NCBI GenBank assembly: GCA_964016885.1
Contig: OZ024740.1
Coordinates: 312,914,001 to 312,978,000, forward strand
From: Eledone cirrhosa
Lineage: Eukaryota
DNA: 64,000 bases
Direction: 5' to 3'
In this document: positions 2,123 to 41,800 of the stretch, one piece after another
Layout: every line of letters starts with the position of its first letter
How positions within the stretch are numbered: the stretch's first letter is position 1
Translations under genes and position numbers: made by a program
Notes under the pieces: model-generated
The model's database searches: none
Told to the model about the DNA's origin: nothing
What the model saw: only the letters and a program-made list of their open reading frames with translations

Positions 2123-4927
2123 CTGGATTGAATAAACAAATAAGCGCAAAATATATGACACAGCAGTATAACACGAAATTGCATGCTAGCAAGTGGCTGA
2201 TGAGGTAGAATGCAGTTGTCTGTCCATCTTATGTAATTGTTTTTCTGCGTGTATTTTCTACTGATACTATAAGGTCTTAATGGTTTAAAGCACCTAGCCA
2301 GTATCTGGGAGATATGGAGTCCAATTCCTCAGCGATTGATTGCAACTTCTAGTCCAACCCTTGCTAACAGGGAAAGCAGACGTTAAAACAACAATGATGA
2401 TGATGATGAAACTATAAGATCCTAGTAGTGTAATGGTTTGCATGTTTACTACATACACCTCATACTTAACAGGAGATGTATAGTTCAATTTTCTTGTGTA
2501 GTTTGAGAACTTACTTTTTTATGAGGAAGTACCAGGACTGCATGTGGTGACATGATAAATCCTTTCCATCTCACATGATCAAGCATTAAATGCCTCGGTT
2601 CTTCACCAGACAGTTCTGTATCTTCTTCAACAACTCTCTTTAATGTTTGGAGAGGACTTCTGTGTTTGTGTTTCATATTAGTAAAAGTTTTGTCGCGGGT
2701 TTGTTGCCTCTCATGGCATGACCTGCAAGTTGAAGACACCTAACACGGATGGTATGGCTAATGGGTGAGTGGTTGCCATAGAGAATTTTATTTGTAACAC
2801 AGTCAAGAGGTTTGTTGTTTTTTATCCTTCTTATCATTCGTGTGTAACAACCATCTACAGTTTTGGTGAAAGGTATTGTCACCAACCATGATTAACAGGA
2901 ATACAGTAATATTGATTCCACTGTAGCTTTGAATAATCTAAACTTTTGTTTTTGTGGTTATGTTAGATTTCCACACCTTATCTACCAAGTTCACAGAAGA
3001 CCATGAAATAAAAATACCTTAAATAAAAACATGAAGAGAATTTAAAAAGTGTTGTCCTACCTGTCATACCAGAATCTGTGATCTAACCACTGTCTTAGGA
3101 GTTCTATTGGAGGTTGAGCTCCATATTTTTCAAGAGCTGGCATATTTAAATCATCAACAAATACACACAATGTTTTTTCTGCTGAAGGACCATAGACACC
3201 TTTACATCGCCTTAAAGTACAAAGGACATATATTATTTAATGTGAAATCAATCAAATATAAAAATAAAGACATATTATATTAAAACATTTTGAGCAGAGT
3301 TTTTCTTTATTTTCTAACAATTGTCTTTTATGAGATGTAAAGCATTTAACCTACCTTTCTAGTTTGGAGGTAATATTATCTTGAACATGATTGGTTGAAC
3401 TTACCTTTCTAGTTTGGAAACAATGATATCTTGAGTCTGGTTGGCTGAAGTTTGTGCTGAGAAGTTGATGTTACATGTTGCGTAGGAGCCTTTATTCAGT
3501 TTTAAGAGGAAATTGTTGATAACAGAACTTTTCCCTGTTCCCGTGGGGCCAACAAATAGTAAGGGCTTTCCTTGATGAAAGAAAAGCTCTAAGAAAAACT
3601 TCTGTCTTTCAGTTTCTTTTGTATTCACTATTATTTTGTTGATCTGGAAATGGATATGAAAGGTATTATAAATCATCATCATCATCATCATCACCTTCAT
3701 CACTGTTTAACGTCCATTTCCCATGCTAGCATGGGTTACGCGAGTTGTTCCGTTGTGAGACAAGTCAGATCAGATGACCATATCTTGCTCACACAGAATT
3801 GTTTTTGGCTTGATTTCTACAATGTGGATTGGGTGTTTTTGTTGTATCTCCAACATGACCACTTTTCAGGTTAGACTGGGAGCTTTTGTATTGCCACCAA
3901 CACGACCATCTGAAGCGACTGACAGAACAATCAATCAATCACAGAGTAAACCCCCAGTTATGGCTGCTACTCATTTTCAGCTGAGTATGCTGGAGCAAAG
4001 TAAAATGAAGTGTTTTTCTTAAGAACACAATACACAACCCAGTCCAGGAATCAAACCCACAACATTATAATCGTAAGTCCAACACCCTTACTACTAGGCC
4101 GTGTGCCTCCACCTCATAAGATATAAGAGGTCCAGTATGTTGAACCAACACTGCTACTGTGTCTCTAACATGATGATAAAACAAGTTATACTTTGTTATA
4201 ACCACGGCAGCAATACTAACTATAACCATGACTAACAGAACTAATCAAAGAAGTTTTAATTACCTTTGTTTTCTCTGTGATGATTGTTGGATCAACAAGA
4301 CTTTCCCAAGTCTTCCAAGATCCATAAAGCTTCTTCATATAAATATAATCATAGATGGATCCCTTCTTAGGGATTAAAAGACTCCGAGAGAATTTCATTT
4401 CTTTTGGTCTACGAAAACAAGATGTTATTTTTATTAGAATAACAAACACTTAAATATAAATTGAATATATATGAGAGAGAGAGAGAGAGAGAGTAACCAA
4501 AGAATTACATATATATGTATATATAATAAATAAGAGACGATTTTAATCGTACATTTCTATTTTATTCATTATACGTATTTCGAAGATGTAAGGTAGTTAT
4601 ATAATAACTCACATCTACGAAATACGTATAACCAATAAAATAGGAATGTACAAATAAAACTGTCTCTCTTATTTATTATAATAAAACTTTGGATGAACAA
4701 AAACCGTGGAGTGCTTCACATTGTCAAAGAATAAGTCGGCAAATTTCTAATCAACCAGCTTTCTTCAATTAAATATATGCATATATATATGCATATATAT
4801 ATATAATTAAGGTTGTTTTCCAAAGTGGATAAAAAAAACTGTAAAATAAGGCATTCAATATGTTAGTAGAGAAGAAGCATATTTATTTTGTATTGAAATG
4901 ACTTCTACAGGACTAGAACTGTTTCAT

Positions 4928-4960
<33 letters not shown>

Positions 4961-7900
4961 ATATATATATATACATACAGTGGAAGGAAGCCACAGTAAA
5001 GGTAGACCAAGAAAAACCTGAGCAGAAGTAGTGAAAGCTGATTTCAATTGCTGAGATTCACAGAAGTGATGATGAAGGAATGCAGTGAATGGAGAGATGC
5101 TGTGCTGAAAAGGACCCATCCAACCCATGCTAGCATGGAAAAACGGACATAAACATGATGATGATGGTGATATATATATATATGTATATATATGTATATA
5201 TATAAATACTTCCTTCTGTTTACCTTGTGTTTATATTTTCAGTATCACATAGCTTGTGGAAGAACTCTTGAAATCTGAGACTTGAATCAAGGTTCAAAGT
5301 TGCTGATAGTGACCAGACCAGTGCAAACATGAAGTGGGCAATAATCATGTTAAATCTTTCTTCAGATATTTTTTCCTGAATTACTGAATATCCTGCCATA
5401 TCATCAATGCTAACCATCTCTTCATCTTGTTGTCCCTCAATATGTCTGGAAAAAACCACAGATTTTCTTTGTTTATGCCAAGAATTTGCTTCTTTATTTA
5501 AAGATTTATTTGAAGGAAGATAGGTAGTATTCACCGGTCTCTAGAGTTCATTTCAGCTTGCCAAGGTTGATGCATACAAATAATGTACATATGAATTATG
5601 GGTGTAACTGTATAATCTTTGTCAGCCCAATTAATAAGCCTACTAGCTTAAAGGTTGACAGATCATATCCTATCACTATTATTGTGCTGGGTTCAACTAC
5701 ATAACTACTTGAAGCTTGTTAACTCAGCTGACCAAGCTATACATAAGAATGATAAGTTTGGGACAGTAAACTGTGCAATAAATGATTTCTTTTGACTAGC
5801 TAGCATACTCTATTATATGTTCCAGCCGAGAGGCTGAGGCCATGCTGGGGCACTGCCATGCTGGGGCACTGCCATGCTGGGGCATGCCTTCTTTTGAGGG
5901 AAATGATTATGTTTCGTTTAAATTAATTCTGGTTGAGATTAAAGGAATTAAATGGCTGAAGCTTATAGATTAATGACTTAAAATTCTGTGAGTCATTGGA
6001 GCATCACCGAAGACTTCAGACTTCCTTTTTATGTACTTTTAACATGGAATATGAGGTGTGTCAGAAAAGTAACAGGACTTTTTCCCATCAATGTTTCTGC
6101 TAATCATAATTATGATATTACATTGATCAATGAATTGTGATATCACATTGACACACTTGATCAGTAAAATCTGTTATGTGGAAGTTGAATGACATTTTCC
6201 AGTTTACTATTATGTGATTTATTTAGTACTTCTATTCAGTGTTAATCCTGGAGAACCCACATAATGAATAAATCACTTTATGGCTCACACCTTCAGCTTT
6301 CTGACATCATAAGGCACAAGAGGCTCACATTAGTTGCACATGTGAAACATCGCAATGAACCTGCTGGCAGAGTTCATTCCTAGAAACCTGATGTATGCAA
6401 ACGAGTTGGGAGACACACCACCACACTGAAGGATGTTCAAGTGTTTTTGTTAAGATCCACAATATTGTAATTAGTATTTGAATATGAGCCATTGAAAGGT
6501 GAATAGATTGCACTATAGACTTGGCTAGTTGAGACCATGGAATTTCTATTTGTGATATGTGGACCTGAAATTGTTTTGACATAAAAAATGTGGGCCTGAA
6601 ATTGTTTTGACACCAAAAATGGGCCACAAGGAAGAAAAGGTTGAGAAAGACTGGGCTAAGCAACATTAGCTAAACAAATAGCTGGTATGAAGATTAAGTG
6701 AAGTAAAATGACTCAACTGAGAATTAAACTGAAATTGTAGACACAACTTACTGGGAAATGACAGCCATTTTACATCCTAGTAATAAATCACTAGTGTAAA
6801 CATTGGGGTAAAGATAGACAAAAGATATATCACAGGGGGTGGGGTCTGAGGGCTAGGTGACTTGATGACAATATCAAATGGAATTTACCTGACGTCTTCA
6901 AGAAGACATTCATATAGTTTCAACATGTTAAGGACCAGGTGCATATATTGACAAGGTACAATCTGAGTGCAGTATTTGGTAACAAAGTTCAAACTACTGG
7001 GAAGTAACCAATTGAAAAGATACTGAAGTAGAGAAATAAAGGAAATGTCAAACAATGACAGCAATAAAAATAATATGTGAAATAAACAGCATAAATAATT
7101 TAGAAAAAAAATACAAATAATTGTTAAAACTAAAAACAGAATGAAGAAAAAATTGGTCATGTTTGGGGATCCAGCCAGATTAGTTGGAGACAGTTGCTTC
7201 TGATAGGACTCGCTGGAAGGAGTGTTTGAGAACTCTGCCTCCATGACCCTCTCTTTTTGATGGTGTTAAGCGATAGAGTACAAGACTATCCTGGACAAGA
7301 TGCCTGTACTCCACAGGGTTAAACCTCCAGCTACTGCTAGTATTCACTTCCAGCTGAGTATACTGAAATGAAGTGTTTTGCTCAAGAACACAACACATAA
7401 CCCACTCTAGAAATCAAACTGATGGCATTATGATTGTAAGTCCAACACCCTGACCACTAGGCCACATGCCTCCACTTAGTAATGACTACAGTGACAAAAT
7501 TAGCCTATGGGAAAGGGTTTACCAGGACTCAAATCTTAGCCCTCTTCTGTTTATCATAGATTCTCAGATTCATAAATTCCTAAAACTCTTGTTTGAATGC
7601 TTTGGGAAATAATGGTAAGATTGTGTTCGTTTGTTTTTTAGCAACTATCCAGAAAGAGAAAAGTAGTCTCTATCCATTACCCATTTTTTCAAGATCTCCA
7701 AGATTAGTGGGAGAAAGGAAAGTTATTCTCAAATTGAATTTTTAGCCAAAATACTTACAACAGAGTGAATCCCACTAAAGGTCCTTAAGGTACTTAAGAA
7801 ACTGTGTGATAAATAAAGTTTACCTCTCAAGAGCTCAGAACATAAAGATTCAGAATAGATACAATCATCATCATTTAACGCCTATTTTACACGCAGCATA

Positions 7901-10900
7901 GGTAATTTTGATAATCCATCACCTGGACTGTTACTTTATGTTATAAACTTCTTATAGATTTAGTGAAGAAATTGTTTTTTAACAAACATTAAATTGCCAA
8001 CTTTGTATGTATGTGTGACGTCCGAATGAGTATCCTACACTCCACCTCCAACTATCTTACCCTCCACCTCCACCAGAACAAATACCAGCAAGATATTTTG
8101 TTTGATTCTCTAGTGACTCTACCAATTCACTTATGACATGAAATAATTGTTTCTTCTTTTGGCACTAGGTCAGCAATTACCCCAGTGCATTACTGGATCT
8201 TTATCGACCTCGTAAGGATGAAAGGCAAAGCTAACCTTGGCGGGATTTGAACTCATAACGTAAAGGGCCATAACTCTATGCTGCAAAGCATGGTGTCTGA
8301 TGTTCTATCGAAACTGCCAATAGCTTCTAATTTTATAAGCACTGGCCTGATGAGCTGCTGGGCTTGAGACAGACTTTAGAGTCATTATTAACTCTTACCT
8401 TGCTGACTACACCTCTATATTGTCCGTGAGAGCTAGTAAGTCATGACAGTCTAGAAGTATCTAGTACTTCTTACAGCTGAGAAATGAAAAACAAGATACA
8501 CAGATATAAGTGAGTATAAAAATAAAAAACAAATAAAATAAAATAAAATAAAATAAAATAAAATAAAATAAAATAAAATAAAAATATAATTTTGGCCATC
8601 ACAGACGACCAGTAATCTTTCTCTTTGGATTCCATTTTTTTAAATCTATGAAGGTTGACTAAAAAGTTCATAGGCTGACTATGAAGGAATAATGTTAGTG
8701 CTGTGGAATTTTGCATGTATTAATTTCAACTCTACTTATTAATAACTGCATTGTTTTTTTCCAGGGACTATGTTGAAAAATAAACCTCATTTGGTCAATC
8801 CATGAGAGTATCTTAGTCAGCATAAAATCTTTATAGTCGACCCTCAAGTATAATATACACTCACTTCTATTGTCTTCTGTTCTGCTTTAGAGAAATCTTC
8901 TAGATTCTTCATCCAAGATTTTACTAAAGAGTTCCATCCTAGTTGCAGTGCATCCATGTAAATCATACCACACCTGAAGAATAAGTAAGGTAACTGTGAG
9001 TTTGTAGTTAAGTTGCAATAAATACATTGTAGCAAGGATTGCAGTAAGATGCCAGTCCATTGCAAAGTTAAACCCCCAGCTATTACTGGGACTCATTTTC
9101 AGCAGAGTATACTGGATCAATGTGAAATGAAGTGTTTTGCTTAAGAACATAACACACAACCCAGTCCAGGAATTGAACCCACGACCTTATGATCACATGT
9201 CTATTAAATGTTTTGACTACCATTCCACACCTCTGCAATATATGTTCTTAATGCTATGTCATAACATGATTTGACTGTTATGCTGCATCCCACACAACAT
9301 GTCCTAATTGTCACATTCTATCTCTTGAAATCAACAGAAGGATAATGTGTCTTGTGATTGAGATGAAATACAAGGTGGATGTGATCTGATATCAGAGCTG
9401 TATGCCCCTATAAGCTAAATAAGCTATAGCTTAGGGCCACACTCTCAGGGGCCTCATTTTTTAAAATGTATATTTATTTTACCATTAGTTTTTATTCTTT
9501 AATACTAAATCATCAAAAATTATATATATATCATTGTCATCATCGTTTAACGTCCATTTTCCACATTAGCATGGGTTAGATGGGTTGTCCCATTAGAAGC
9601 AAGTTGGGTCAGGTGACCGTGTCTTGCTCTCATGTGTGTGTGTGTGTGTATTTATTCTTTATCATTAAGATTAATATAAAAAATAATAATTATGCATAAT
9701 TAATACAAAAGATCCGACTTCCGATAGGTACAAGCTGAAGCTGAAACATAAAGACAGTATGGCCCCACCCCCTTCCCACTGTACAGTGGTCATGTAAGAA
9801 CCATGGTAAAAAGCACCCAGTACTCACTGTAAAGGAGGTTGGTGTTAGGAAGGGCATCCAGCTGCAGAAACCAAGCCAAAATCAGTTCTGTATGTATAAG
9901 ACATGATCATCTGACCTGGCATTGCCCACAACAGGACAACTCATCTAACCCATGCTAGCGTGGAAGAATGGATGTAAAACGGTGATGATGATGAATTATT
10001 AAAAATGATTTTACCCAAATTTTTTTAGAGAAGAGGCTCAAGGGGCTCAAATTTCATATAGCTTAGGGCCTCAGCAGGTAAAAGTTTAACCCTGTTTGAT
10101 ATCATTATGCCATAGCTACATGTACATATAGAACCCCTCATATTCTAACCAACAACAACATTAACAAAGAAAGTAAAGAGCAACAATATGTGAAGTACAG
10201 AACAACAATACATGGAAATGTGAAGAACAACAATACATTACCTACTGACAGTGGCAGGAGATGCTTGTTCAAGATGACACACTTCAAATATCATATTCTG
10301 TTTGTTGTTCATCTGTATAATTTCTCCACTCATGAGGCACAGCTAAATAGAGAAATTACATAGAAGTTACAGTGAAGGTGTGTGGCATAGTGGTTAGAGA
10401 GTTGGATTTACAATAGTGAGGTTGTGAGTTCAATTCTCAGACTTGGTGATGCATTGTGTCCTTGAGCAAGACACTTTAATTCCTGTTGCTCCCTCTGCCA
10501 GGAGTTGTGACTGGTTGATAGTATCAGCAATAGAAACATCGTTTCCTTGGTCTGATTTGACAACGTCCGCCCCACTTGGCGAGTGAATGAGGTTTGGGAT
10601 CTTGTCAATCGTTCCTAGAGATTGTGAAATACATATACACTGCTCATCAAAAATATATATTATCGTAGGTGTGATTCAGATATTCTATTGTATTTATGGG
10701 TCAGAGACTGGAGTGTGTTGGGGTCTTTATGTTAATCACTCAGGCCAGTTTTTGTATAGAGACTAAGATGTGTCTGTATGTGTAGCAGCAGCTGGACATT
10801 GGTCAGTTTTTTCCATCCATAGGCGTATTTTACTTGATTTTCTAAGCTATTATTTATAGCAATTGACTGTGTTTCCAGTTAATTTCTGTGTCTGAGATTC

Positions 10901-11677
10901 CTTCATTTTATATGAACTTTATAACTCCTCAGCGTTTTGAAAGTTTGATACTTTACTTGGTCTATGGCAGTGATAACACCTACTCCGTGGTCATTTCCAA
11001 ATCAAATATTTTCTCTATTTTCTTCGCTTATATCTTCTTGGTTTGTGTTTGCTGTAATTCTTTTATTGAGTAACTAATTATGCAATATGCACCCAATGAT
11101 GTCGTCAGGACTTTTTCATAACCTGACCATTGAAATATATATAGTGTTTTTGCAACAATAAAACTTTAAGGGAACTTCACCAGTCATTTTAATCAAAATA
11201 ATAACTCCGTTTCTGCACCACCAATAGGATTCAACATCAAAGATGGATGAGTTGCAAAATGCTGAGTGCTTTTCCTACTATTACATCAAGGTTAACTATA
11301 TGGGCTAACCAGTTCTATCCAGTGGTAAACCACCAAACTTAAATGTATATATATCATCATCATCATCATTTTATGTCCGCTTTTCCCTGCTTACAAGGGT
11401 GGGATGGGAACTGATTCTGGCTTGCTTTCTACAGCTGGATGCCCTTCCTAACACCAACCTCATTTACAATGAGTGCTGGGTGCTTTTTTTCCATGGTGCC
11501 TACATGTCCACTTTACAGTGTAGGCTGAGTGCTTTTTTGCTGTGGCACCTCCACAACCACTTTGCAATGGAATGATAGGGACTCCAGTCCTATCATCTCA
11601 TTTCTACAGCTGAGTAAACTGGAGCAATGTGAAATAAAGTGTCTTGCTCAAGGAAACAACACTTTATTTCGCATTGC

Positions 11678-11762
<85 letters not shown>

Positions 11763-14700
11763 CACATAGCTTAGTGGTTAGAGCATTGGCCTTGCAATCG
11801 GAAGGTTGTGAGTTCAATTCTCAGACAGGGTGATGTGTTGTTTCCTTGAGCAAGATACTTTATTTCACATTGCCCCAGTTTACTCAGCTGTAGAAATGAG
11901 ATGATAGGGACTGAGGTCCCTATCATTCCACTGCAAAGTGGTCGTGGAGGTGCCACGGAAAAAAAGCACCCAGCACTCACTGTAAATGAGGTTGGTGTTA
12001 GGAAGGGCATCCAGCTGTAGAAATCAAGCCAGAATCAGTTCCCGTCCCACCCTTGCAAGCAAGGAAAAGCGGACATAAAATGATGATGATGATGATGATA
12101 TATATATATTGGAGAATATTTCTAGAATATTACTCTCTGTACCTTTATACCTGTTTATCTTTATTCACTCTCCCTACCCACCTAAGAACCACACTACCTA
12201 TAACCCGGATTAACTGGGGACGAAATATAGTCTTTTTGCACATTTCATCGGGTTTTATCACTTTCAACCTCACATCACGTTTGGTAACACGCGATGATCC
12301 GACAGATGTGACGACATTGCCGGCTGCACGCTGGGCACCCGGGTGAATAAGCCTTCCTGGAGTGCTCGGAAAAATTAATTTCCATTTCTTTTGCTAGACG
12401 ATATCACTCGGAACGGCTGACACATGGTTAGGAAGGGCTGGCCAGGATCTGCAGTCGTCGCTGATTATTGACTGCTAAACAAGGGCTTAATCTTTACTCT
12501 ATATACTACCCTGAAAACTTATTGAGAATATCTATAATACACTTAAACTTTTTCATAAAAGACTCTTTCTGTAAATTCTTTAACTAAATCTCACAACCCA
12601 AACCTTAAACCTTATTTCTCTTATTTTTCTAATAACTCTAAACATAAGTTTAATGTTCCTAATTGCTAACCAAAATTTCTGTCCACACATTACACCATAC
12701 AGACGCCCACTATATATGCCTTTGTTAAAGATATATATGCTTTGGAAAAAACATTTTTCGTGGCAATTTCTAGCACGCACGGTCAGCCTGATTGTGGCAT
12801 GACCTTTTCTCTTTGACGGGGAGGTAGTAGTACATTATAAGCTTACGCCCCCTCACCAGATAGTCATAAGTAGACTTAATAATCAACACTCGAGGGCGAC
12901 TGACTGAGATAGAAGCTGCTAAATAGTCGGTCGTCCTCTTGTCTCTGATTTTATCTGTTATATTCCTTTGTTATATTTCGAATACCTGATTCGAATATAT
13001 TTCGAATACCTGATGATATCACCGGATTCATAGTATAATAAACCTTTCAAGGATTTACACCAGTCCAGCCTCCTGTTATTTTATAATAATTAACTCCGTA
13101 CTCACACCACCAACTACACAAACGAAGACGGGTGAGTTGCATTACGTTGAGTACTCTCCATAATATTACATCGAGATTGACCATACGGAATGACCAGTTC
13201 TATCCAGTGGTGAACCAACTAACCTAAATAAATATATATATATAATTAAAATGCGCGGGTGAAAAATGCACAGAAGTATATTTAAAAATTCTTTTTTCTT
13301 TAATCCAACAGAATGAATAATTTTATGATTGCTGCACTAAATATAAATATCAAAAATTGGATATTAAATATTAAAAAAAATGTTTTTTCGTGTTAGTTTT
13401 CTGTCAACTCACATATATTCGAACTACTCACAGAACATATGAAAAAACATTAAAGAAATATTTAATATCTAATATTTGATAAAATTGTTATACTAATTAA
13501 AACCTGTTATATTTAATGCAACAATTATAAAATTATTCATTCTGTTAGATTAAAGAAAAAATAATCTTTAAATATACTTCTATACATTTTCACCTTCACT
13601 TTCTAGTTATCACCTTTGTTCTGTATAGAACTTTACCCCATTTTTCAACAACAACAACACACACATACATACATACATCATCATTCATCATCATTTCATT
13701 TTACGTCCTCTTTTTCCCTGCTTGCAAGGGTGGGACGGGAACTGATTCTGGCTTGATTTCTACAGCTGGATGCCCTTCCTAACACCAACCTCATTTACAG
13801 TGAGTGCTGGGTGCTTTTTTGCCGTGGCACCTACACGACCACTTTGCTGTGGAATGATAGGGACCCCAGTCCCTATCATCTCATTTCTACAGCTGAGTAA
13901 ACTGGAGCAATGTGAAATAAAGTGTCTTGCTCAAGGAAACAACACATTACCCGGTCTGAGAATTGAACTCACAACCTTTCGATTGCAAGTCCAATGCTCT
14001 AACCACTAAGCCATGTGCCTCCATACATATATATATACATATATATATACATACATATATATATACATAAATATATATATATAATATAATATAAAATCAA
14101 AAGATGGTTAAAAGAGTTCCATGTATTTTATTATGCGCATTTCAAAAACAAATATCATCATGGGATGATATTTGCGTTTTCATCAGATAAAATAGGGAGA
14201 CATGATATGAAGCTTAAAAAACACTTGCGAGCAGTGAAGTGTCAAATTAACATAGGAAAAATAAAATTAGAGGGATATATGAGATTGGAAAAAAGGAAAG
14301 GAAAGGGGAAAGAAAAGGTAAGGAAGAGGGAGAAAAAATGTCTATTTTCCATGCTTGCATGGGTTATACAGCTGTCACATGCTGAGGCCAGACTGGTCAG
14401 GTGACTAAGTGTCCAGTTCATATGCTTTGTTTCAGTTTGGTTTTTATGGCTAGATGTCCTTCATAAAACACACACACACACAGACAGAGATAAGTAGGTG
14501 CATATTATTGACCAGACTCAAATATCAAAATAGATATGTTTGCTAAACTATTAAGAAATATTTATACAGAAAGACACCATACTGTGTTATTGAATATGAT
14601 CATTTGACACAAAATAGTTTGTTTCAACTTGACTCATATTTCATTTATCTATTGTCTGTTTATAAAAGGTTTGAATTTCAGGTGGTTGATTGAAGTAGTT

Positions 14701-14793
14701 AATTATATATCAATCAATAAATCAATCAATACTAGAGATCTAACAATCAATTGCAGCTCCAAGCAAATGTTAAATGTATGAGGAAGAAAAAAA

Positions 14794-14831
<38 letters not shown>

Positions 14832-17800
14832 CACATACATATATGTGTATACATTCTGCATAGTCACTTGACTTCCTAGAAACAACAACTAAATTTCCCC
14901 CAAATCACTGCTCCCACTGTCTGCAATATAAAAAGAACATATTGGAAAACGTAGTTTTTGATACCCCTAAACATATGGGATGATCATGGCTCAAATACTT
15001 TTGATCACAGGTTTGTTTATTTAAAGCTGACTTGGGGGCTTAAAGACAACAACAGCAAGAAGAACAACAGCAGCAGCAACAAGGACAATAACAATGATGA
15101 TAATAACAACAATAGCAGCATCAATGACAGCATCGGCAACAACAACAACAGTAACACCAATGACAACAACACAACAACAACAACAACACCACCAATGACA
15201 ACAACAACAACAGCAGTAACACTAGAATTATTACCTTCTTATTGTCATCTAGAACAGTATTCATATTTTCAATCCAAATGGCATCAACAGGTCCATCAAA
15301 CACCATCCACTTACGGTTTCTTGATGTACTGGAAGCATGTTCTCGGAAACTGTTTGCTAGAACTCCTAACAACATTAAAGTTATGAAACAATAAAGTTAT
15401 TAAATAAATAAACATTGTTGTCTCTGATTGAGACGAAGTGAGAGTATATTTGAATTCATAGAACAATGAGAAAACTCATCACTAGACTAGCTGTTAAACC
15501 AGCCAAATGGTGTCAATGATAGTGATGGTCAAAAATGCCTCAGAGGACAGAGACCAGTGGCCAGTGGTCAACAGAGAGACAATCCACAAGGTGGGTGACA
15601 AGCAGATGAAATATAGAAAAGATCGAGACATTGTCATCCTCCTCTCTCAATCTTTTTTATATTTCATCTGCCTATCAGAATATATCTATATTTCATATGC
15701 CGTATGTATTGTCTCTTTGCTGCTGGTCTCTGTCCTCAGAAACACTTTTGCCCATTGACAGTATTTGACTGTTTTCTGTTTTAGCGATGAGTTTTCTTAT
15801 TTTTCTATGAATTAAAGTTATTCATTAGTAAATCAGATTTGTGACTGCAAATACAAATTAAACAACAATAATTACATACGAGGACAATACTGTCTCGTGT
15901 TTAATGTGTGGCATTCTCTAATGCCTAGGGTCAGATTTATTAGGGGTGGGGGTAGCAGAGGGAGTGAATACCCTGAGCACCTCTTTTTAAACAGGGCCTC
16001 TACTAGAAACAACCATGGCTCACCCCAACATGAACTATCCAAGATCTCCCAAACCTGAACGGCTTGTCTAAACTTGAGTTATCTTGCCCCCCCCCCCATA
16101 CCAGAACTGCCTCAAGGTCAAAATATGGCTCTGCTAATGCCCCACACAGCTTGACACTGACCAACAATGTTTTATGTCTGATTTTTTTATGTCATGTTCA
16201 GAGCTAGTATATGAGTATATGACATTGGTGCTTGCTATTTTATGTAACATGACTACGTCATCTTAAGTAACAGATGGCTATGTTATCTTAAGTAACAGAT
16301 GGCTATGTCATCTTAAGTAACAGATGGCTATGTCATCTTAAGTAACAGATGGCTATGTTATCTTAAGTAACAGATGGCTATGTCATCTTAAGTAACAGAT
16401 GGCTATGTTATCTTAAGTAACAGATGGCTATGTTATCTTAAGTAACAGATGGCTATGTTATCTTAAGTAACAGATGGCTATGTCATCTTAAGTAACAGAT
16501 GGCTATGTCATCTTAAGTAACAGATGGCTATGTTATCTTAAGTAACAGATGGCTATGTTATCTTAAGTAACAGATGGCTATGTTATCTTAAGTAACAGAT
16601 GGTTATGTTATCTTAAGTAACAGATGGCTATGTTATCTTAAGTAACAGATGGCTATGTCATCTTAAGTAACAGATGGCTATGTCATCTTAAGTAACAGAT
16701 GGCTATGTTATCTTAAGTAACAGATGGCTATGTTATCTTAAGTAACAGATGGCTATGTTATCTTAAGTAACAGATGGCTATGTCTTCTTAAGTAACATTT
16801 CACTATGTCATCTTAAGTAACAGATGGCTATGTCTTAAGTAACATTTCACTATGTCATCCTACTTAACAGATGGCTATGTTATCTTATGTAACATCTCAC
16901 TATGTCTTTTTAAGTAACATATCACTATGTCTTAAGTAACACATCACTATGTCTTCTTAAGTAACACATCCCTATGTCTTCTTAAGTTACATCTCACTAT
17001 GTCTTCTTAAATAACATATCACTACGTCTTCTTATGTAACATGTTACAATGTTTCCAGATGTAGTGTTTGACAACATTGTCTGATGTTTGATGCATAAAA
17101 CTATCTCATTTATAATGCTTGATATAATGTGTGATAACATTGTTTGATGTTTGATATAGTTTGATGTTTGATATATAATGTGGCAAAAGACAATATTCAT
17201 GTTTGATATATTGTACAATATAGTCTGTTTAATGTAATGTATGACATACAATTTGTTAGCATTGTCTGAAACAATAATTGAGCTGATCCTCTCTTTTCCT
17301 GTTCAGAAAGCCATTTACAACTGTCTGATGTATCTAATAGGAGGCACATTGGCAGAATCGTTCAAATATCAAACAGAATGCTTTGCAGTATCTGTGGTGC
17401 CTCTGAGTTCAAATCCTGCTGAGGTCAATTTTGCCTTTTATTCATTCAAGGTTGATAAAAAGGTACAAACCTAATACTGGGGTCGATTCTTCCTCTATAT
17501 CTCTTTCTTACTACTATTCTCTCACTCTCTAACCTTCTCAGGAAGAAATCTGCTGTATTCAGATCTGGAGAGGAGATGGGCTCTGCCAGGTTTAAAAAAT
17601 GTCCTAGAAATGCTTATGACACTACAACGCTCCTACGACTCCCTCAAGAATTACATGTTAAAGAAGAGGAATGTACCTAATTAACCTTTTTGATGTCAAT
17701 CTACTTAAAAAATGCCCCTCCTTCTATAAAACAATAAAAATCTTGATGTCGGGAACTTTTGTTTAGTTATATTATAAGTACAATCTTACAATCTTAACAA

Positions 17801-20800
17801 TGAAATAATTCATAATTTTGGTAAAACACTCAAAATGTTTCATTAGAAATAAGGTAACAAAAGAGTAAATATTATTTAGTTTTGGTAGAGCATTGGACAA
17901 GATGCTTCACAATTTATAGTTATGTCCCTTTATGTTCAAATCCTGCTGAGGTTAGATTTGCCTTTCATCTTTACAGGATCACTAAAACGAAGTATCAGTA
18001 ACACACTGGGGTTGATTTAATCGACTTTCCCCTTTCCAGAATTATTGGCCTTGTGCCTAAATCAGAAACTATTATTTTGTTTACACAGTGATAGCTAACA
18101 TCTAGGTTTATCATATAGTATACAAAGGTAGGCTGAAAAGATCATAGGCTGACTATGAAGGAGTGATGCTAGAGCTGTGAAATCTAGCATGCATTAATTT
18201 CAACACTTCTTATTAATAACCGCATAGTTTCTTTCCTGGTACTATGTTGAAAACTAAACCTCATTTTGTCATTTCATGAGAGTATCCTCGTCAGACTATG
18301 AACTTTTCAGCTGACTCTCATATTATAACATCAAAAAACAAACATTGCTTATGTGTCAGCAATTTATTGAAGTTTACCATCAGTCCATTCATGAGAGATT
18401 GGATCACATGTACCATATAGCTGACCCATAGTTATGGCTTTCGGGTTAATAACTTGATACTCAACCTGCAATGACAAATAATATAAGATTCAATTATGTT
18501 TGGACATCATCAAAACCACCACCACCATCGCACACCCCACCATCACCACTACCACCATCAAAACTACCATCACCACCATCACCATCGTCATTATCATCAC
18601 CCCCATCACCCCTCATCATCATCACTACCACCACCACCAGTAAAAAAAATGAAACAATGCAGTATCTTACCTGGTTCTCGTCCATAAGGTTGTGTTGGGA
18701 AAGGTCTCCTAGTGTATCAGCCAATACTTTATAGGCACAAGTCTTGCCAGCTATAGGATCCCCTACAATCATTAAACCATGGCGTACCAATATCATATTG
18801 TATATCTGCCAAAGTTGAGAGTAAGAAAAGATAAAGATATCAGAATGGACGTTTGCAACTACAATGAAAATATATCATTGATGGTCTTCATTTTCTTCTT
18901 AATATAATTTCTAATAAATAAGACATTAAGGTTAGTAAATATGTAACGGTTAGGCCAGATAAGATTGGCTCAGGTTAACTGTTAAGATTAGGTCAGGTCA
19001 AATTAGATCAGGGCAAATCAAATGTTAAAATTAGGTTAGGTGAAGATTGGGTCAGATATAAAGATTAGATTTGATGTTAAGACCAGGGAAAATTTTAGAA
19101 TTGTATCAAATGTTATGATTGGGTCAGGTGTTGATTGGATTAAATATTAAGGTAGGATCGAATGTTGAAATCAGATCGAATGTTGAAATCAGATCAAATG
19201 TTGAGATGAGATCAAATGTTGAGATGAGATCGAATGTTGAGATGAGATCGAATGTTGAGATGAGATCGAATGTTGAGATGGGATCGAATGTTGAAATCAG
19301 ATCAAATGTTAAGATGTTATGATTGGGTGAATGTATTGATTGGGTCAAATGTTAAGATTGGTTCAAATATTGAGATTGGATCAAATTTTAAGATTGAAGG
19401 GTGCAGGATTTACAACTTGTCTGGTCCTAGCAAGGAAAGTGGACATTAAAATGAGGACAATGATGAGGAAGAGGATACCTTTTATTGAAGAAAGTGCTGC
19501 ATAATTAATAAAGTCCAAGGAAATGAGGAAACAAGATAAATATTTATGATTGGATTGAGAGTTAGTGGGTTTTGTAATGGACAGAAATGGACAGGTAGAG
19601 GTTGTCAATAGAGATAGATATTTAGGAAGATGATAGTGTTATATACTGTAGAAGTGACTTATATAATATATATATATGAGATCAACTCAGGGTATAATCA
19701 AGGTGATGGGGCCTGACTCTTTTTCAACATTTTGCCAGATATGCGAGCTTATATGTGCAATGACACATCTAAACCCAAACGAAATGGACCTTGTAACAGC
19801 ATTGAGTTCTTCGAATGGCATGTCACCTGTAACTGTTGTTACACACCTAACTAACACACATATATATATATATCATATTTGATTTATAAGTTTGTATGAT
19901 AAATATACTAAACATGTACTGAATTAAGGACTCCCTATATAGTATATAGAATCAATATAATAATTATTATTTACAGTGACTGTTTACTTCAAAATATTTC
20001 TAATATTATTGGCTTATCAAAAATAGATGTATGATACTACTGCTACTAGTGGAGGCACGTGGCCTAGTGGTAAGAGTGTTGGACTTACGATCATAATGTT
20101 GTGGGTTCAATTCCTGGGCGGCGTGTTGTGTTCTTGAGCAAAACACTTCATTTCATGTTGCTCCAGTTTACTCAGCTGAAAAGGAGTACCAGCAATAGCT
20201 GGTGGTTTAACCCTGCGATGGACTGGCGTCCTGTCCAGGGGGGAGTCTTGTACTCTCAGTCACTTCACGCCATTAACCGGGATAAGCACCGGCCAAATGA
20301 GCCTTCTGGCTTCAGACAGACTTTAGACTTTTTTTTTTTTTAGACTACTGCTACTACTACTATTACTAAATTCATTTACTTCTTTGTGGTGACATGATAA
20401 AATCTTTCCATCACACACAATCCAACATTAATTGCCTTAGATCTTCACCGGATAATTTTGTATGTTCCTCAATGACTCTCTTTAATGTCTTGAGAGATTT
20501 TCCGCATTTGTGTTTCACATTAGTGGGCTCCTATAATAGTGTTTTCTAGCAGGTTTTTTGCCTCTCATGACATGACCTGCAAGTTGAAGACACCTTACAT
20601 AGATGGTATGGTTAATGGGTGGGAGGTTGTTATAGAGAATTTGTTTGTTACACTGTCTAGAGGTTTGATGTTATTTATCTTTCTTAGCATTTGGGTGCAG
20701 CAACCATTTAAAGCTTTGGTGATATGTTTTGTCACCATAACCTTTTTCATAAGCTAATACTTCAAAGTAAATAGTTGGTATTATTAATATATCATCATCA

Positions 20801-23800
20801 TCATCATCACCGTTTTACGTCCGTTCTTCCACGCTAGCATGGGTTAGACGGGTTGTCCTGTTGTGGGCAGTGTCTGGTCGGCTGACCATGCCTTGCTCAT
20901 ACAGGAACTGATCTGGCTTGATTTCTACAGCTGGATGCCCTTCCTAACACCAACCTCATTTACAGTGAGTGCTGGGTGCTTTTTCGTGGCGCCTACACGT
21001 CCACTTTACAGTGTGGGCTGGGTGCTTTTTTGCCGTGGCACCTCCACGACCACCTTGCGGTGGGGGGTGTGGGGGCATATTGTTTATATGCTTCAGCATG
21101 TACCCATGGGAGGTCGGGTACCCTGTATTACTGCGTGGCGCCAGAAGTCACGGTCGTGTGTCATTGACTTTGAGAGGTGTAATTGGGTAAGTTCGGCTTT
21201 TATCACCTCATCCCAAGTCTTCTTGGGTCTCCCCACTCCGCGGTTTCCATCAACTTCTAGTGCTCTGCACCTTTTTATGCAGCTGTCATCCTTCATACGC
21301 ATCACATGTCCATACCAGCGTAACCGCCTCTCCTGCACGCAGCATTTGATTCCTCTTATGCTCAGTCTCTCTCTCAATTCCTTTATGCTTTGTCGTTCAC
21401 GTATATTACTGTTACAGTCCTACGCCATTTTGTTTCTGTTCAAAGGAGAGGCACAGAAACAAAGAAAGGAATCCCCAGTCACTGAAGAGGTCACAGAGTG
21501 TGTGACGAAAGGACTATGACTATATATAAACAACTATCTGGTTGTGGAACCAACCAACCAACCAGAAATTTATAAATTTATAAATTTGTAAATTTATAAA
21601 TATATAATAAATTGAAGTGAAAGCAACTGGTGCGTGTGTTTCTTATTGGCAACATGACCCTCCCAAAGTATAACAATATCGGTTTCAACACACGATTTCA
21701 GATAAAGAATCTTGCTAAACAAATTCAGAAATGATATATATATACATATATATATATTTAAGTAACAATTTCCACCCTCTCCATATATAATTATCAAAGC
21801 TAGATGAAATGAATAACTACCTGGATTATTTTTTCAATATACCAAGGTACAGGCTGCATGTTCAATATCTGTAGAGTCTTTTTTACTGCCATCTCTAAAT
21901 GGCTGTATTCTTTACTTTGAGGTAGTTTTAACCCTGGAAACAGGTCAGATATGATGCTTTCGAATAATGTGATGTCTTGAGAAAGGAACTACAACATAAG
22001 CAATTGATAAAAAAGACTTTAGAAGTTAACACATTCAACTAATTGTTCCTAGGTTATGGTTTTAATCTATCTGATAGATGTATATTATTTATTAATACTA
22101 GCAGAAGAACCGCCCAAAGGGTGGTTTTCTGCTAGCATATGTAGTGTGTATATTGATATACGCAAATATATATATGCACATAGATATAATACGTAAATTG
22201 ACAATATGCACATAAACTGAACAAAGACTGCGTTACACTTGCTTCTGTAATCACTAAAGTAATCCATGACACATTAAAAAAAAAGGCGATAATGGAGATG
22301 GAAAAGCGATGAAAGTGTTGACGGAAAATGTTCATGAATCTTCACTTGAGAATGTCGATGGGAAGCTTCAAGCAGTGAATTTGAAAATAGATGCTGCTGG
22401 TATGAATGAATGAATTACATTTACCAATATGAAGAGTTGACCTTCCCTATATTGTTGTTTTACTGTATTCACATATAGACGTCTTAAGTTTTTGTAGTGT
22501 CCTTTTTCTAGCAGTTAAAAAGTAATTGAAATGCATTTCAACTAAAAGAGAGTGATAGCTGTTTCACATCACTGTAGAATTTCTTTGTAGACACAGTTGT
22601 CAGCAAACAGACCCCTTTCATTTAATATTTTAATATTTTCTTTTTTTGTTAACTCGTGATAATGCAACATACATTTGACCATGTGAGAAGAATTGTGTTG
22701 GTAGATATACACCTATCTTTTCAAATGTCTGCCCATGTGCCTTGTTGCATGTAAGGGCAAAGGCTGGTTTGACAGGAAATTGCTTGCGAGTAAGGGTGAA
22801 AGGGAGCTCAAGCTCTTGAGATACATGTGGTATCCTTGGGATTAGCAACCTTGTTCCAGCATTGGGACCCATGCCATTTCAGCTTCAATTACATAATTAT
22901 GTAAACTGATGGTGATGTACCATTGCAATGCCTGTTTAGAGGATCCAGATTTCTTAGAAGCATGATGCAACTGCCTTTCTTCAGTTTAAGTATGTGTGTT
23001 GGGTAGCCTGATGGGGTAAGTTTGTTGATGAACTCAATTGGATATTGCAGTTCATTATCTACTGTATCAGAGCTTCTGTAGATTATTTCATGACCAGGGA
23101 ACTTGTTGACCATGAACTCATTCACCAATTTTGCTGCATCATTTGTTGGAGTGATAATGGCTCTATTTGCAAGCCATAGTGGGTTTATGTAGTTTCCTGG
23201 AAGATTTGTATACACAAAATCACACAGTCCAGACACATTACCATATTCCAGACAAAGTTCATTTGGCAGAAGAATTGTGAATGCACCTACAGTTGGAACA
23301 GTTGGAATGTTACCATCTCCCACATCAAGAAGGTAGTTTGCAAACTGTCTTTCCTCAGAATCCTCCGCATTAATTAACCGTTGAGTAGTTGTCATCTCCA
23401 TGGTTTCCACATAGTCCCAGAGATAGGATATCTTGATGGTTGTCTCAACTATTCGTGGTCTAGCACCATGACGTACAACTGGAAGAATTTGCTTCCAGTC
23501 ACCAGATAGTAATTGTTAGACCACCAAATGGCTTTTTGCAATCTCGAACATCTTTGAAGCTCCTGTCAAAGCATTCAAAGATATGTTTATGTCCCATACC
23601 TATCTCATCAGTGATTAGCAGGTCAGCTTGCTGCATAAGTTTACCTGTGTCATCCCTCTTTGTGAAGAAGGAAGTTGATTCAGCAGTCACATTGAGAGGA
23701 ATCTTGCACTTGGAATGAAGAGTTCTACATTTGTGAAGCAAAGTGGCTGCTATTCCAGATATGGCAGTGGAAAGTGCAATTTTTTTCTTTTTTAGATCGG

Positions 23801-38800: not shown

Positions 38801-41800
38801 TGGTGGAGATGAGGATAATGATGGTGTTGGTGGTGATGGTGTTGGTGGTGATGGTGATGATTGTGATGATAATGATTATCGTAGTGATGATGATGATGAT
38901 GATGGTAGTGATGATGATGATGATGATGGTAGTGATGGTGATATGATGGTGGTGGTGGTGGTGGTGATATGATGGTGGTGGTGGTGGTGGTGATGGTGGT
39001 AATGGTGATGGTGGTGATAACAATGATGATGATGATGATGATGATGACAATGATGACAATAATGATAATGACAATGATGATGATAACAATGATGATGATA
39101 ACGAAGGTTATGATGGTGATAACAATAACAATGATATTGGATGTAATCACCAATTATTTCATTGACAAGAACTAAATAGCACCAGATGAAGTCTATTCAA
39201 GTCTCAGATGATATTCAATCTTTAATCACATTATTTTCTATATATTCAATGATAACATTAGATTTTTTCAATGTAGAAAAATATATTATTTGAAAAATCT
39301 TATCTTAATAATAAATCAATGAACTGAGGTGATTTTTAACACAATTAGATTCAGTAAATTTGTGTGATAAAATCACTATTGTTGTCACCATTGTCACACA
39401 GCAAAGAACTGAGGACAAAGTGCGAACCTTTGATAAGGGCTGTATATTTGGGATGTATAAATACTAATATATTTTTGCATTTTTTCTTTATATTTCTTAT
39501 TTCATTCCCTTAAATAAAAAGGATAAAGGGTAAAGACCCCCTTTGGTCATGATTGACCATAGGATTTACACCTAGAAAGTTCCCCCCTGAGGCACAAGTC
39601 TAGGCAAGGTTGTTTGTGGAAGACCAGCAGTCACCCTTGCATACCAGTCTCTCCACTCCACACCACCAATGTTGTCCAAGGAAAAAAGCAAAGGCACCAG
39701 AGATGTCACAACTCATTTCTACAGCTGAGTGAACTGGAGTAACATCAAATTAAGTGTCTTGCTCAAGGACACAACACAAAGCCCAGTCTGAGAATCAAAC
39801 TCACAATTGCAATAAAACTCAGCACTGTTGACAAGGTAAAATGGTCATGAAATGGAAATGATTATTTTTCATGCATGGTAGTGAAACATGGGTTGAAGAC
39901 ATGTATAGATTAGAGAGAAATGAAGCACCCATGTTTTGTTGGATGTGCAATGTAAGTGTCAGAGAAAGGCAGAGCTTGGATGAGCCGAGGGAGTAGCTGG
40001 GTTTAAGAGGAATCTGAGTTGGTGTACAGGAGAGAAGACTGCATTGGTAAGGACATGTGATGTGCATGGACAATGACTGCTGGGTGAAGAAATGCCAGGA
40101 AATCCCAGTGGAAGGAAGCCACAATAGAGGATGACCAAGAAAGACCTAGGCAGAGGTTGTGAGAGTGAACCTCAAATTGATAAGACTGGGTGAGGAGATG
40201 ACGAAGGAATGTGACAAGGGGAGAGATGCTGTGCTGAGAAGGACCCATCCAACCCAAGCAAGCATGGAAAAGTGGACGTAATGATGATGATGATGATGAT
40301 GATGAAAATAAGCTGTGATGAATTAATTGAATGTCCCTCTAATTAATCCTCAACTTACTTGCTGAAGCCATTTCTCAACAAGCCCATGAGCCTGTGATGG
40401 GACAATACTGTTACAGAAGTTCACTCTTTCCTTTTCTGAAGATTCCATAGCTACAATTACTTTCTCTGGAGTAAAGACTAATTGAGCGACACTTTCGAAA
40501 CATTTCTTCAGGTGAGGTTGCACACGTAAAGGATCTTTAGTCTCAGAAAGAATTTCCAAAAGCTCATCATTTGATAAGAAGAAAAATCTGAAACCAAATA
40601 CATTCATTAAACTTTAGGAAAATAAATAAAAAACAAAACAGACAAACAAAATTACTATATGAGAAATAAGTGTAAAGTCTGTCTTGAACCCAGAGGTTGA
40701 TCAGACTGGTGCTTATCCCAGTTTCTGTAGTATGAAGTGACTGGAAGTACAAGACTTCTCCCTGGACAGGGCACCAGTCCATCACAGTGTTAAAGTCTGT
40801 CTCGAGCCTGGAGAGTCATCAAGCTGGTGCTTATCCCAGTTTCTGTAGCATAGAGTGACTGAAAGTACAAGACAGGACACCAGTCCATCACAGGGTTTTA
40901 TCCCCCAGTTACTGCTGGTACTAGTTTCCAGCTGAGTATACTGGAGCAACACACAACTCAGTCCAGGAACTGATGTTTTACAGCATAGTTACGTCCCTTT
41001 ACGATCTGAGTTCAAATCCCGCCGAGGTTAACTTTGCCTTTCATCATTACGGGGTCGATAAAATAAAGTACCAGTAATGTACTGGAATAATTGCTGGCCT
41101 TGTACCAAAAGTAGAAACAATTATGATTGTACATCCAACAGACTTACCACTTAGCTACATGCTCTATATGAGAAATAATAGATATGTATTATAGGGATGT
41201 GTGTCCTCTAATAGATTAGGGGACACACTAATCTAATCCAATCCAGGGGCCTTCTCACTCCTGTTGGATAAACCCCTCCCTGGTTGACTTTCACCACTTT
41301 GTTTGGTTTTGGTCATGTCAGGGATGTTGCCATACTCACCATGCTTGGCCAAGAGTCAGAACAAATACTGCAAAGCATTCTATCCGATGTTCTAACAACT
41401 CTGGCTATTCACTGCCTATACATGTTTATAGTAAAGTTAATTTGACCACTTGAGGTTGAAGACAGAACCACATTGATGATACAAACCATTGATTCTTTAC
41501 CTACTTGACTACTGACATTTTATTGACTCAATCAACTTTGATTCTCATTACAATTAAATGAGGAAGACAAAGGCAGAACATGAGAGAATCTGTGATCAAT
41601 AGTAGAGGTGGTATTGATTGAATATTAATCATTAGCTGGTCAAATAATGAAGGAAACTTGAGCTGGACATTGGTGTTGATTAGTTTTATTATAACATAAG
41701 GGTGGTAGATTGGCAGTATCTGTAGAGCATTGGACACCATGCTTTGTAGCATAGAGTTACGGTCCTTTACTTTCTGAGTTCAAATCCCGCTTAGGTTAGC

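Follow-up and report, generated by a model that had tools for sequence, protein, structure and literature searches.

The type I hammerhead motif in an intron of a dynein heavy-chain gene of Eledone cirrhosa is, with high probability, part of a Hydra-clade Penelope-like element (PLE). It would lie in a copy of 260 bp, truncated at its 5' end, whose insertion at a (TA)n tract of the intron was likely a matter of chance and whose cutting of the host pre-mRNA is predicted to be rare. The window (the whole stretch of DNA analysed, 64,000 nt) holds the motif at 14124..14194. The motif itself is ordinary, since retrotransposon stubs of this kind number in the tens of thousands, and it calls for caution, as most large genes of this genome are expected to have an intact hammerhead in an intron. 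The family is of use as a young and very abundant Hydra-clade element with long open frames, covarying hammerhead stems and a fixed mismatch.

The hammerhead motif and its host intron

The features on which the analysis rests are listed below in window coordinates.

10343..15234, minus strand, host intron of the dynein heavy-chain gene, GT-AG, 4,892 nt (exon junctions, Pfam)
14080..14339, minus strand, 5'-truncated 3' end (pseudo-LTR part), 260 bp, of a retrotransposon assigned to the Hydra clade of Penelope-like elements (locus comparison)
14194-14124, minus strand, type I hammerhead motif (sequence, descriptor search, folding)
14194-14187 with 14131-14124, minus strand, stem I, 8/8 Watson-Crick pairs (sequence)
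14186-14180, minus strand, core CUGAUGA (sequence)
14179-14144, minus strand, stem II, 15/16 positions paired, C-U mismatch at pair 4, G-U at pair 5, CCAU loop
14143-14140, minus strand, GAAA (sequence)
14140-14133, minus strand, helix III palindrome AUGCGCAU (sequence)
14132/14131, minus strand, predicted cut after the cleavage triplet AUA (sequence)
14186, 14140, 14133, 14132 and 14131, positions C3, A15.1, U16.1, H17 and N1.1 in hammerhead numbering
14119..14205, minus strand, predicted stem I extension of ~5 extra pairs (14205-14201 with 14123-14119)
14023..14085, no strand, (TA)n-type microsatellite at the 3' end of the element, the insertion target; 3' ends of the family lie in TA runs
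13712..14021, minus strand, tRNA-headed dispersed repeat, SINE-like, across the TA tract from the element and unrelated to it

The minus-strand sequence that the earlier note gave for the hammerhead is correct to the base. The perfect 8-bp stem I, the stem II of about 15 bp and the AUA triplet with its predicted cut, all read there from the letters, are borne out by the sequence, stem II with the mismatch at pair 4. A CUGANGA / GAAA / UH core and three helices, open at stem I, are present, as in type I hammerheads. The palindromic stem III described in the same place stands as an intermolecular helix but fails in the monomer, where at most 2 A-U pairs form around a GCGC loop; helix III of the window motif is 2 bp in cis and 8 bp in trans. 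A 6-nt pyrimidine bulge (14200-14195) would separate stem I from its predicted extension and is a candidate loop 1, judging by the sequence and by constrained folds of family members.

The type I descriptor gave a single match in the 64-kb window (stem I 8, stem II 15 and stem III 3 pairs by the count of the script). With strict stems it gave 0 matches in 200 dinucleotide shuffles, and in its loose form 0.165 per shuffle. The 81 nt of minus strand with the hammerhead folded with z = -3.3. No hammerhead family was matched in the Rfam scan, neither at the gathering score nor at E<=10.

The borders of the host intron are exact. The upstream exon (...DDNKK) ends at 15235, followed by GT at 15234, and the downstream exon (LCLMSGEII) begins at 10342, after the AG that ends at 10343. 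These borders agree with the proposed location between the exons at 15235 and 10342. The motif had also been described as sense to the dynein heavy-chain transcript, and the dynein Pfam domains are all on the minus strand: DHC_N2 (40353-40601), AAA_6 and AAA lid, with Dynein_C ~84-96 kb downstream of the window. From its motif, we take this heavy chain to be of the axonemal type. The distance of about 40 nt to a (TA)n tract also holds, with the tract starting near 14085. The dispersed repeat on the other side of that tract contains an Rfam tRNA match (13956-14013) and has an inverted copy, 96% identical, at 11759-12068; it is presumably a SINE.

Other repeats were seen nearby. A 25-bp minisatellite of ~30 units (16124-17000) occupies the next intron upstream, and an intronic short tandem repeat with a unit of ~18 nt (19119-19449) appears as a repetitive open frame. 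On the plus strand, at 21476-21525, lies a second hammerhead of a different family, antisense to the dynein gene. It has a CUGAAGA core, an extra G, a GUCAC/GUGAC stem II and a minimal helix III, with a TA run ~200 nt later, and its pattern has 16,321 genome matches (8,165 + 8,156; control 0). The DHC_N2 coding exon (Pfam E 2e-30) was in addition matched by Rfam RMST_9 on the minus strand (40358-40550; 70.8 bits, above the gathering score). Region 9 of the lncRNA RMST of mammals may accordingly derive from dynein or resemble it, and invertebrate 'RMST9' annotations may be dynein exons; 7 'RMST9' copies have been annotated in a tunicate (PMC8704543). A literature search on the likeness of RMST_9 to dynein found no paper stating such a link.

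The retrotransposon family and its insertions

The earlier note had suggested searching the genome for family copies, and the search identifies the family as a transposon. A tight pattern (stem I, core and palindrome frame) gave 39,733 matches (20,078 + 19,655) in 3.0 Gb, and the reversed pattern used as control gave 0. In the DNA search of the same genome (3.0 Gb, 1,796 contigs), 577 candidates were obtained, and the 40 that were scored contained 41 matches at 96-100% identity. The window copy is 97% identical to the copy in locus L003, and the exact 71-mer occurs at 20 loci genome-wide (19 besides the window). In four contig runs (at most 2 samples of 1 study), the summed depth over the motif was far above that of the unique flank, and no contig spanned the insertion.

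The tight pattern occurs once per 75 kb, a density at which a sense intronic position requires no special explanation. It predicts 0.85 copies per 64-kb window and 0.9 sense copies in the gene body of at least 137 kb, with P(>=1)=0.6; inverted pairs make these figures overestimates. Within the 264 kb scanned, 1 copy was found where 3.5 were expected (P = 0.14, pairs inflating the expectation somewhat). These numbers bear on the reading that the motif is an intronic ribozyme domesticated to regulate the splicing or expression of the dynein gene, in the manner of CPEB3 or of the intronic hammerheads that are ultraconserved in amniotes. Its orientation (sense) and its intact structure are compatible with such a role, but the position is expected by chance, the boundaries are those of a truncated insertion, and dozens of dispersed copies share 96-98% identity with this one, whose 71-mer is found exactly at 19 other loci. 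This identity and the recurring 71-mer indicate a young copy with nothing locus-specific, and domestication is considered very improbable.

The limits of the element were set by comparison of loci. Similarity reaches from the TA tract to 14338/14339 in 25 of the 29 other fetched loci. Upstream of this point most of those loci share more sequence, of staggered lengths, and the window copy stops. The common 3' end and the staggered 5' ends indicate a fixed 3' end with variable 5' truncation. The window copy (14080..14339) is solo, without ORF and without inverted partner. Among 12 long loci, selected for long copies or known pairs, 9 have a head-to-head inverted partner (two of them represent one duplication). 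Two of the 12 long stretches carry a C-terminal endonuclease frame ~0.8 kb upstream of the motif region. Locus L063 is a canonical partial tandem, pLTR-ORF-pLTR, with direct repeats at 3236-3848 and 6914-7521 (613 bp). The motif region is present in both repeats at 95% identity, the upstream core being mutated, and the likely ATG of the ORF lies ~215 nt past the cut site of the upstream hammerhead. In this locus and in the extended loci, the hammerhead sits in the pLTR, sense to the ORF.

A TA run was found within 400 nt of 119 of 121 motif occurrences (overlapping loci counted separately), clustered at two distances. The 3' ends lie ~40 nt past the predicted cut in 65/121 occurrences and ~130 nt past it in 42/121. 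Ends at these two distances, including that at L063:3763-3850, indicate an optional tail of ~90 nt, which exceeds the 30-40 nt given for PLE tails in the literature. The partial-tandem pseudo-LTR, the 5' truncation, the inverted 5'-truncated partner and the optional tail together make up the anatomy of an EN+ Penelope-like element.

Several side observations concern these insertions. In the short head-to-head pairs L135-L143 (G000:C1, e.g. 5077430-5078080), the point where one arm turns into the other lies no more than a few bases from a CATATG palindrome, which is itself ~61 nt upstream of stem I. This turn is present in 8 of 13 pairs picked for short spacing, 4 of them with perfect symmetry, and locus-specific variants are mirrored across both arms. 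The turning point suggests a fold-back hotspot in cDNA synthesis. In the window copy the CATATG palindrome is mutated, and the copy extends beyond it. Stubs of subfamilies B/C (L064:3915-4057, L069:4435-4576, L066:465-595) have the same stem I and core with another stem II. In L064 and L069 they share TA tracts with subfamily A elements, so that insertions of more than one PLE family are stacked at a single microsatellite. The variant B motifs that precede the ORF in L064 and L069 had been considered as a second, different hammerhead at the 5' end of the element; this was rejected, since they are separate stubs bounded by TA runs. Tandem hammerheads of another family, spaced ~420-500 nt, occur at L067:8528-9478 (-) and L068:8249-8665 (+) and are possibly a retrozyme array. 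At G000:C4:352199857-352283643, four endonuclease-frame matches of identical score, with a 569-aa frame, are spaced by ~27.5 kb, probably a tandem segmental repeat carrying the element.

The coding capacity was examined in the longer copies. A search with the endonuclease frame gave 117 genome matches at 75-100% identity. The 14 of these that were extended have 500-760-aa frames upstream of, and sense to, the hammerhead, and in L063 and L064 the frames are open over 715-760 aa. The family ORF contains the RT motifs QFD..YS and YRDD and a GIY-YIG-type C-terminus. A profile of 12 ORF sequences matched a neighbouring, Pfam-annotated RVT_1 + GIY-YIG ORF (96.6%, E 5e-10). Pfam gave no match in the 6 family ORFs or fragments scanned, and five homologues were without RT or GIY-YIG match, so the RT/EN identity rests on motifs and on the profile comparison. 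A profile search of the PDB with the family ORF returned nothing meaningful, and the database homologues of the ORF included no named protein except one 'hypothetical protein'. The longer copies have the organization of EN+ Penelope-like elements, a single ORF with RT and C-terminal GIY-YIG.

The same data bear on a rival reading in which the motif is a single unit left by a non-LTR retrozyme, whose non-coding hammerhead units are arranged in tandem and yield circular RNA. The type I fold, the short palindromic helix III and the low GC are as in metazoan retrozymes (PMC7229834), and retrozymes have been proposed to derive from PLE pLTRs. However, no tandem array was found in the window or in the 264 kb scanned, and longer copies run upstream into a coding RT-EN ORF and not into another unit, a contradiction that holds for subfamily A. 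The upstream ORF was seen in 5/30 loci, all of subfamily A. We regard a retrozyme origin as extremely improbable.

The clade of the PLE was then read from the ORF. Marks of the Hydra clade are DKT, a CxCx5C linker, CxxC and CxH in the EN, no CCHH, and (TA)n targeting (PMC8557442). All are found here: SDKT (DKT for DKG), CNCPVRTKC (CxCx5C), CNLC (CxxC), CLH (CxH), no CCHH, and insertion at (TA)n. The N-terminal motif is RWI in L064 and RWK or RWR in the database homologues. Judged by these motifs and by the (TA)n target, with reference RTs compared by eye, the element is assigned to the Hydra clade of PLEs. The Neptune/Nematis clade (Neptune had been the first label) was rejected, its CX2-5CxxC linker and CCHH motif both being missing.

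Expected activity of the solo copy

The secondary structure was compared across the family. All fetched loci together yielded 47 distinct stem II sequences, of subfamilies A (29), B (6) and C (12). Stem II pairs 1-3 and 5-7 are formed in 44-46 of the 47, and pair 4 is unpaired in 46, as C-U in subfamily A and C-C in B and C. At pairs 2, 3, 6 and 8 the subfamilies differ by changes on both sides of the pair (in the 47 sequences and in a smaller set of 39). Shifting the register by 1-2 lowers pair 6 to 2-11/47, and pairs 1-3 remain high from A/U runs. Stem II thus covaries among the three subfamilies, which are related and non-independent; the core and stem I, which the search pattern prescribed, are not counted. 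Helix III changes from AUGCGCAU in subfamily A to AUAUGUAU or AUAUAUAU in B and C with self-complementarity kept, and the perfect palindrome is the commonest helix III (55 of 85 motif strings). This pattern points to selection on the hammerhead fold during the history of the family. In the models of A and C, stem I is predicted to continue past a bulge or internal loop; for B the prediction is less clear.

Folding of the window motif was predicted via ViennaRNA, in which tertiary contacts are outside the model. The pairing probability of helix III in the monomer is ~0.001. The active monomer fold has -11.2 kcal/mol compared with an MFE of -17.7 kcal/mol, 6.5 kcal/mol above the optimum. The probability of stem I in 260-420 nt of context is 0.13-0.47. 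The two-strand MFE is -46.5 kcal/mol (vs 2 x -17.7, -35.4) and represents a double hammerhead through the 8-bp palindrome. In the region between -100 kb and +164 kb, which takes in the 3' end of the gene, no second copy (subfamily A, B or C) and no element ORF was found. This 264-kb scan indicates that no cis partner lies downstream in the gene or within 150 kb upstream. Little of the cutting of the nascent transcript that the earlier note had proposed is predicted, since the motif likely needs a second copy that is missing nearby, and as a solo copy the hammerhead may have low monomer activity.

Published experiments give a range of behaviour. Minimal hammerheads of PLEs did not cleave as single motifs and cleaved weakly as dimers (PMC4209133), and a review states the dimer requirement (PMC6765202). 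The hammerhead of the anole Poseidon element cleaves only with its own protein and is dispensable for insertion in vitro, and no RNA-seq ends were found at its site (PMC11167929). Invertebrate retrozyme hammerheads with a 2-bp helix III and a tetraloop can cleave singly, at ~0.8/min for a coral, and the axolotl Amex2 hammerhead cleaved 22% per hour as a single motif (PMC7229834). A slow hammerhead in an intron let splicing persist, whereas a fast HDV ribozyme blocked it (PMC2995048, citing Dye 2006 and Fong 2009).

The most probable course, in the reading of a Hydra-clade stub inserted by chance, would be as follows. The element endonuclease would nick (TA)n, and the RT would copy the element RNA from near its 3' end, with an early stop at the window locus. 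In an intact pLTR-ORF-pLTR, the 8-nt palindrome would join the two hammerheads as a double hammerhead, which, possibly aided by the element protein, would process the RNA of the element itself. The solo intronic copy, with no cis partner, would require a trans dimer or the weak 2-bp monomer helix. A slow cut 1.1 kb past the 5' splice site would likely still permit splicing. Against this reading stand the intact core of the window copy and its long stems I and II. From the models, the bulged stem I extension could provide tertiary stabilisation. The ~40,000 copies make trans dimers less implausible than for a rare element.

On these points hinges the alternative that the transposon origin is the same and the solo copy cuts a measurable share of nascent dynein transcripts, as an unselected side effect. 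The solo copy would act either as a monomer, stabilised where stems I and II touch, or as a trans dimer with the many other transcribed copies. The intact core, the 8-bp stem I and the 15-bp stem II speak for it. The helix II covariation around a near-invariant pair-4 mismatch suggests a tertiary site under selection, cleavage as a single motif is known for some hammerheads whose helix III has 2 bp (PMC7229834), and trans partners would be common because the palindrome is the commonest helix III (55/85). However, helix III is A-U only with a monomer P of ~0.001, stem I reaches only 0.13-0.47 in context, and A10.1-U11.1 stands in place of the typical G-C pair (PMC4209133). Moreover, the PLE hammerhead tested with its protein did not cleave when the protein was absent and left no RNA-seq ends in the reported data (PMC11167929). 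A measurably active copy is therefore judged unlikely.

A wider conjecture, which we hold to be quite unlikely, is that the family represents an undescribed type I architecture, in which helix II has a base of 3 bp, then an invariant C-pyrimidine mismatch and a long outer helix, on which a bulged helix I docks. That fold, or trans dimers through the palindrome, would make solo intronic copies active. Thousands of host pre-mRNAs, including that of dynein, would be cut co-transcriptionally and then spliced across the break or lost. If solo copies were active, the ~20,000 motifs per strand would be a natural test of splicing across cut introns. The family likewise offers material on the role of PLE hammerheads and on the purging of sense intronic copies, through an orientation-bias test with very large n.

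Comparison with known systems

Conserved intronic hammerheads are likewise self-cleaving motifs in sense orientation within an intron of a protein-coding gene, the cut site being a predicted one in the present case. They are single-locus and kept across species, whereas the window motif belongs to a high-copy transposon, is a young copy and shows no sign of locus-specific conservation. Among mobile elements, minimal and variant hammerheads of PLEs are reportedly also treated by Lunse et al. 2017, as cited in a review (PMC6765202).

The minimal and variant PLE hammerheads of Cervera and de la Pena 2014 (PMC4209133) share with this family the type I fold, the place in pLTRs, the palindromic helix III and the predicted function as dimers, and they too are mostly dispersed single motifs from truncated elements. 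The 39,733 motifs counted here with one tight pattern exceed the 4,000-9,000 reported for coelacanth and Xenopus (PMC4209133) and are fewer than the 126,247 type I motifs of the axolotl (PMC7229834). Metazoan non-LTR retrozymes (Cervera and de la Pena 2020, PMC7229834; Li et al. bioRxiv 10.64898/2026.07.22.740005) have in common the type I fold, the short helix III and the link to PLE pLTRs. In contrast to them, the element here is neither tandem nor non-coding, and its longer copies encode RT-EN.

A search of the octopus and cephalopod hammerhead and Penelope literature, in its available portions, and of the corresponding part of Craig File S2 found no description of the ribozyme of this family; repeat libraries (Repbase, Dfam) and the supplements of repeat papers may include the family. 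In the main text of the O. vulgaris repeat paper, neither 'ribozyme' nor 'hammerhead' occurs. Earlier publications already describe PLE hammerheads, the scattering of these as single motifs, and Hydra-clade elements in octopus.

The closest likeness is to the Hydra clade, including Hydra-1_Obim of Octopus bimaculoides (Craig et al. 2021, PMC8557442). Common to both are the single RT + C-terminal GIY-YIG ORF with DKT, CxCx5C, CxxC and CxH and no CCHH; the (TA)n target, 5' truncation, partial tandems, inverted partners and optional tail; and a canonical type I hammerhead ~50-130 nt before the 3' end. On visual comparison, the RT motifs are very close to those of Hydra-1_Obim. Differences here are an Asn-rich insert, a ~1.1-kb 3' UTR and a very high copy number. 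The length of ~3.7 kb and RWI also differ from the 'generally <3 kb' and RWK of the clade. The hammerheads of Hydra-1_Obim and of the other Hydra elements in File S2 have CUGANGA+N cores, a stem II of 3-7 bp and a helix III of 3-4 bp, and the fixed C-Y mismatch at pair 4 was not seen among the Hydra hammerheads in the available part of that file (PMC8557442). In contrast, the family described here has a stem II of up to 16 positions, no extra nucleotide and an 8-nt palindromic helix III.
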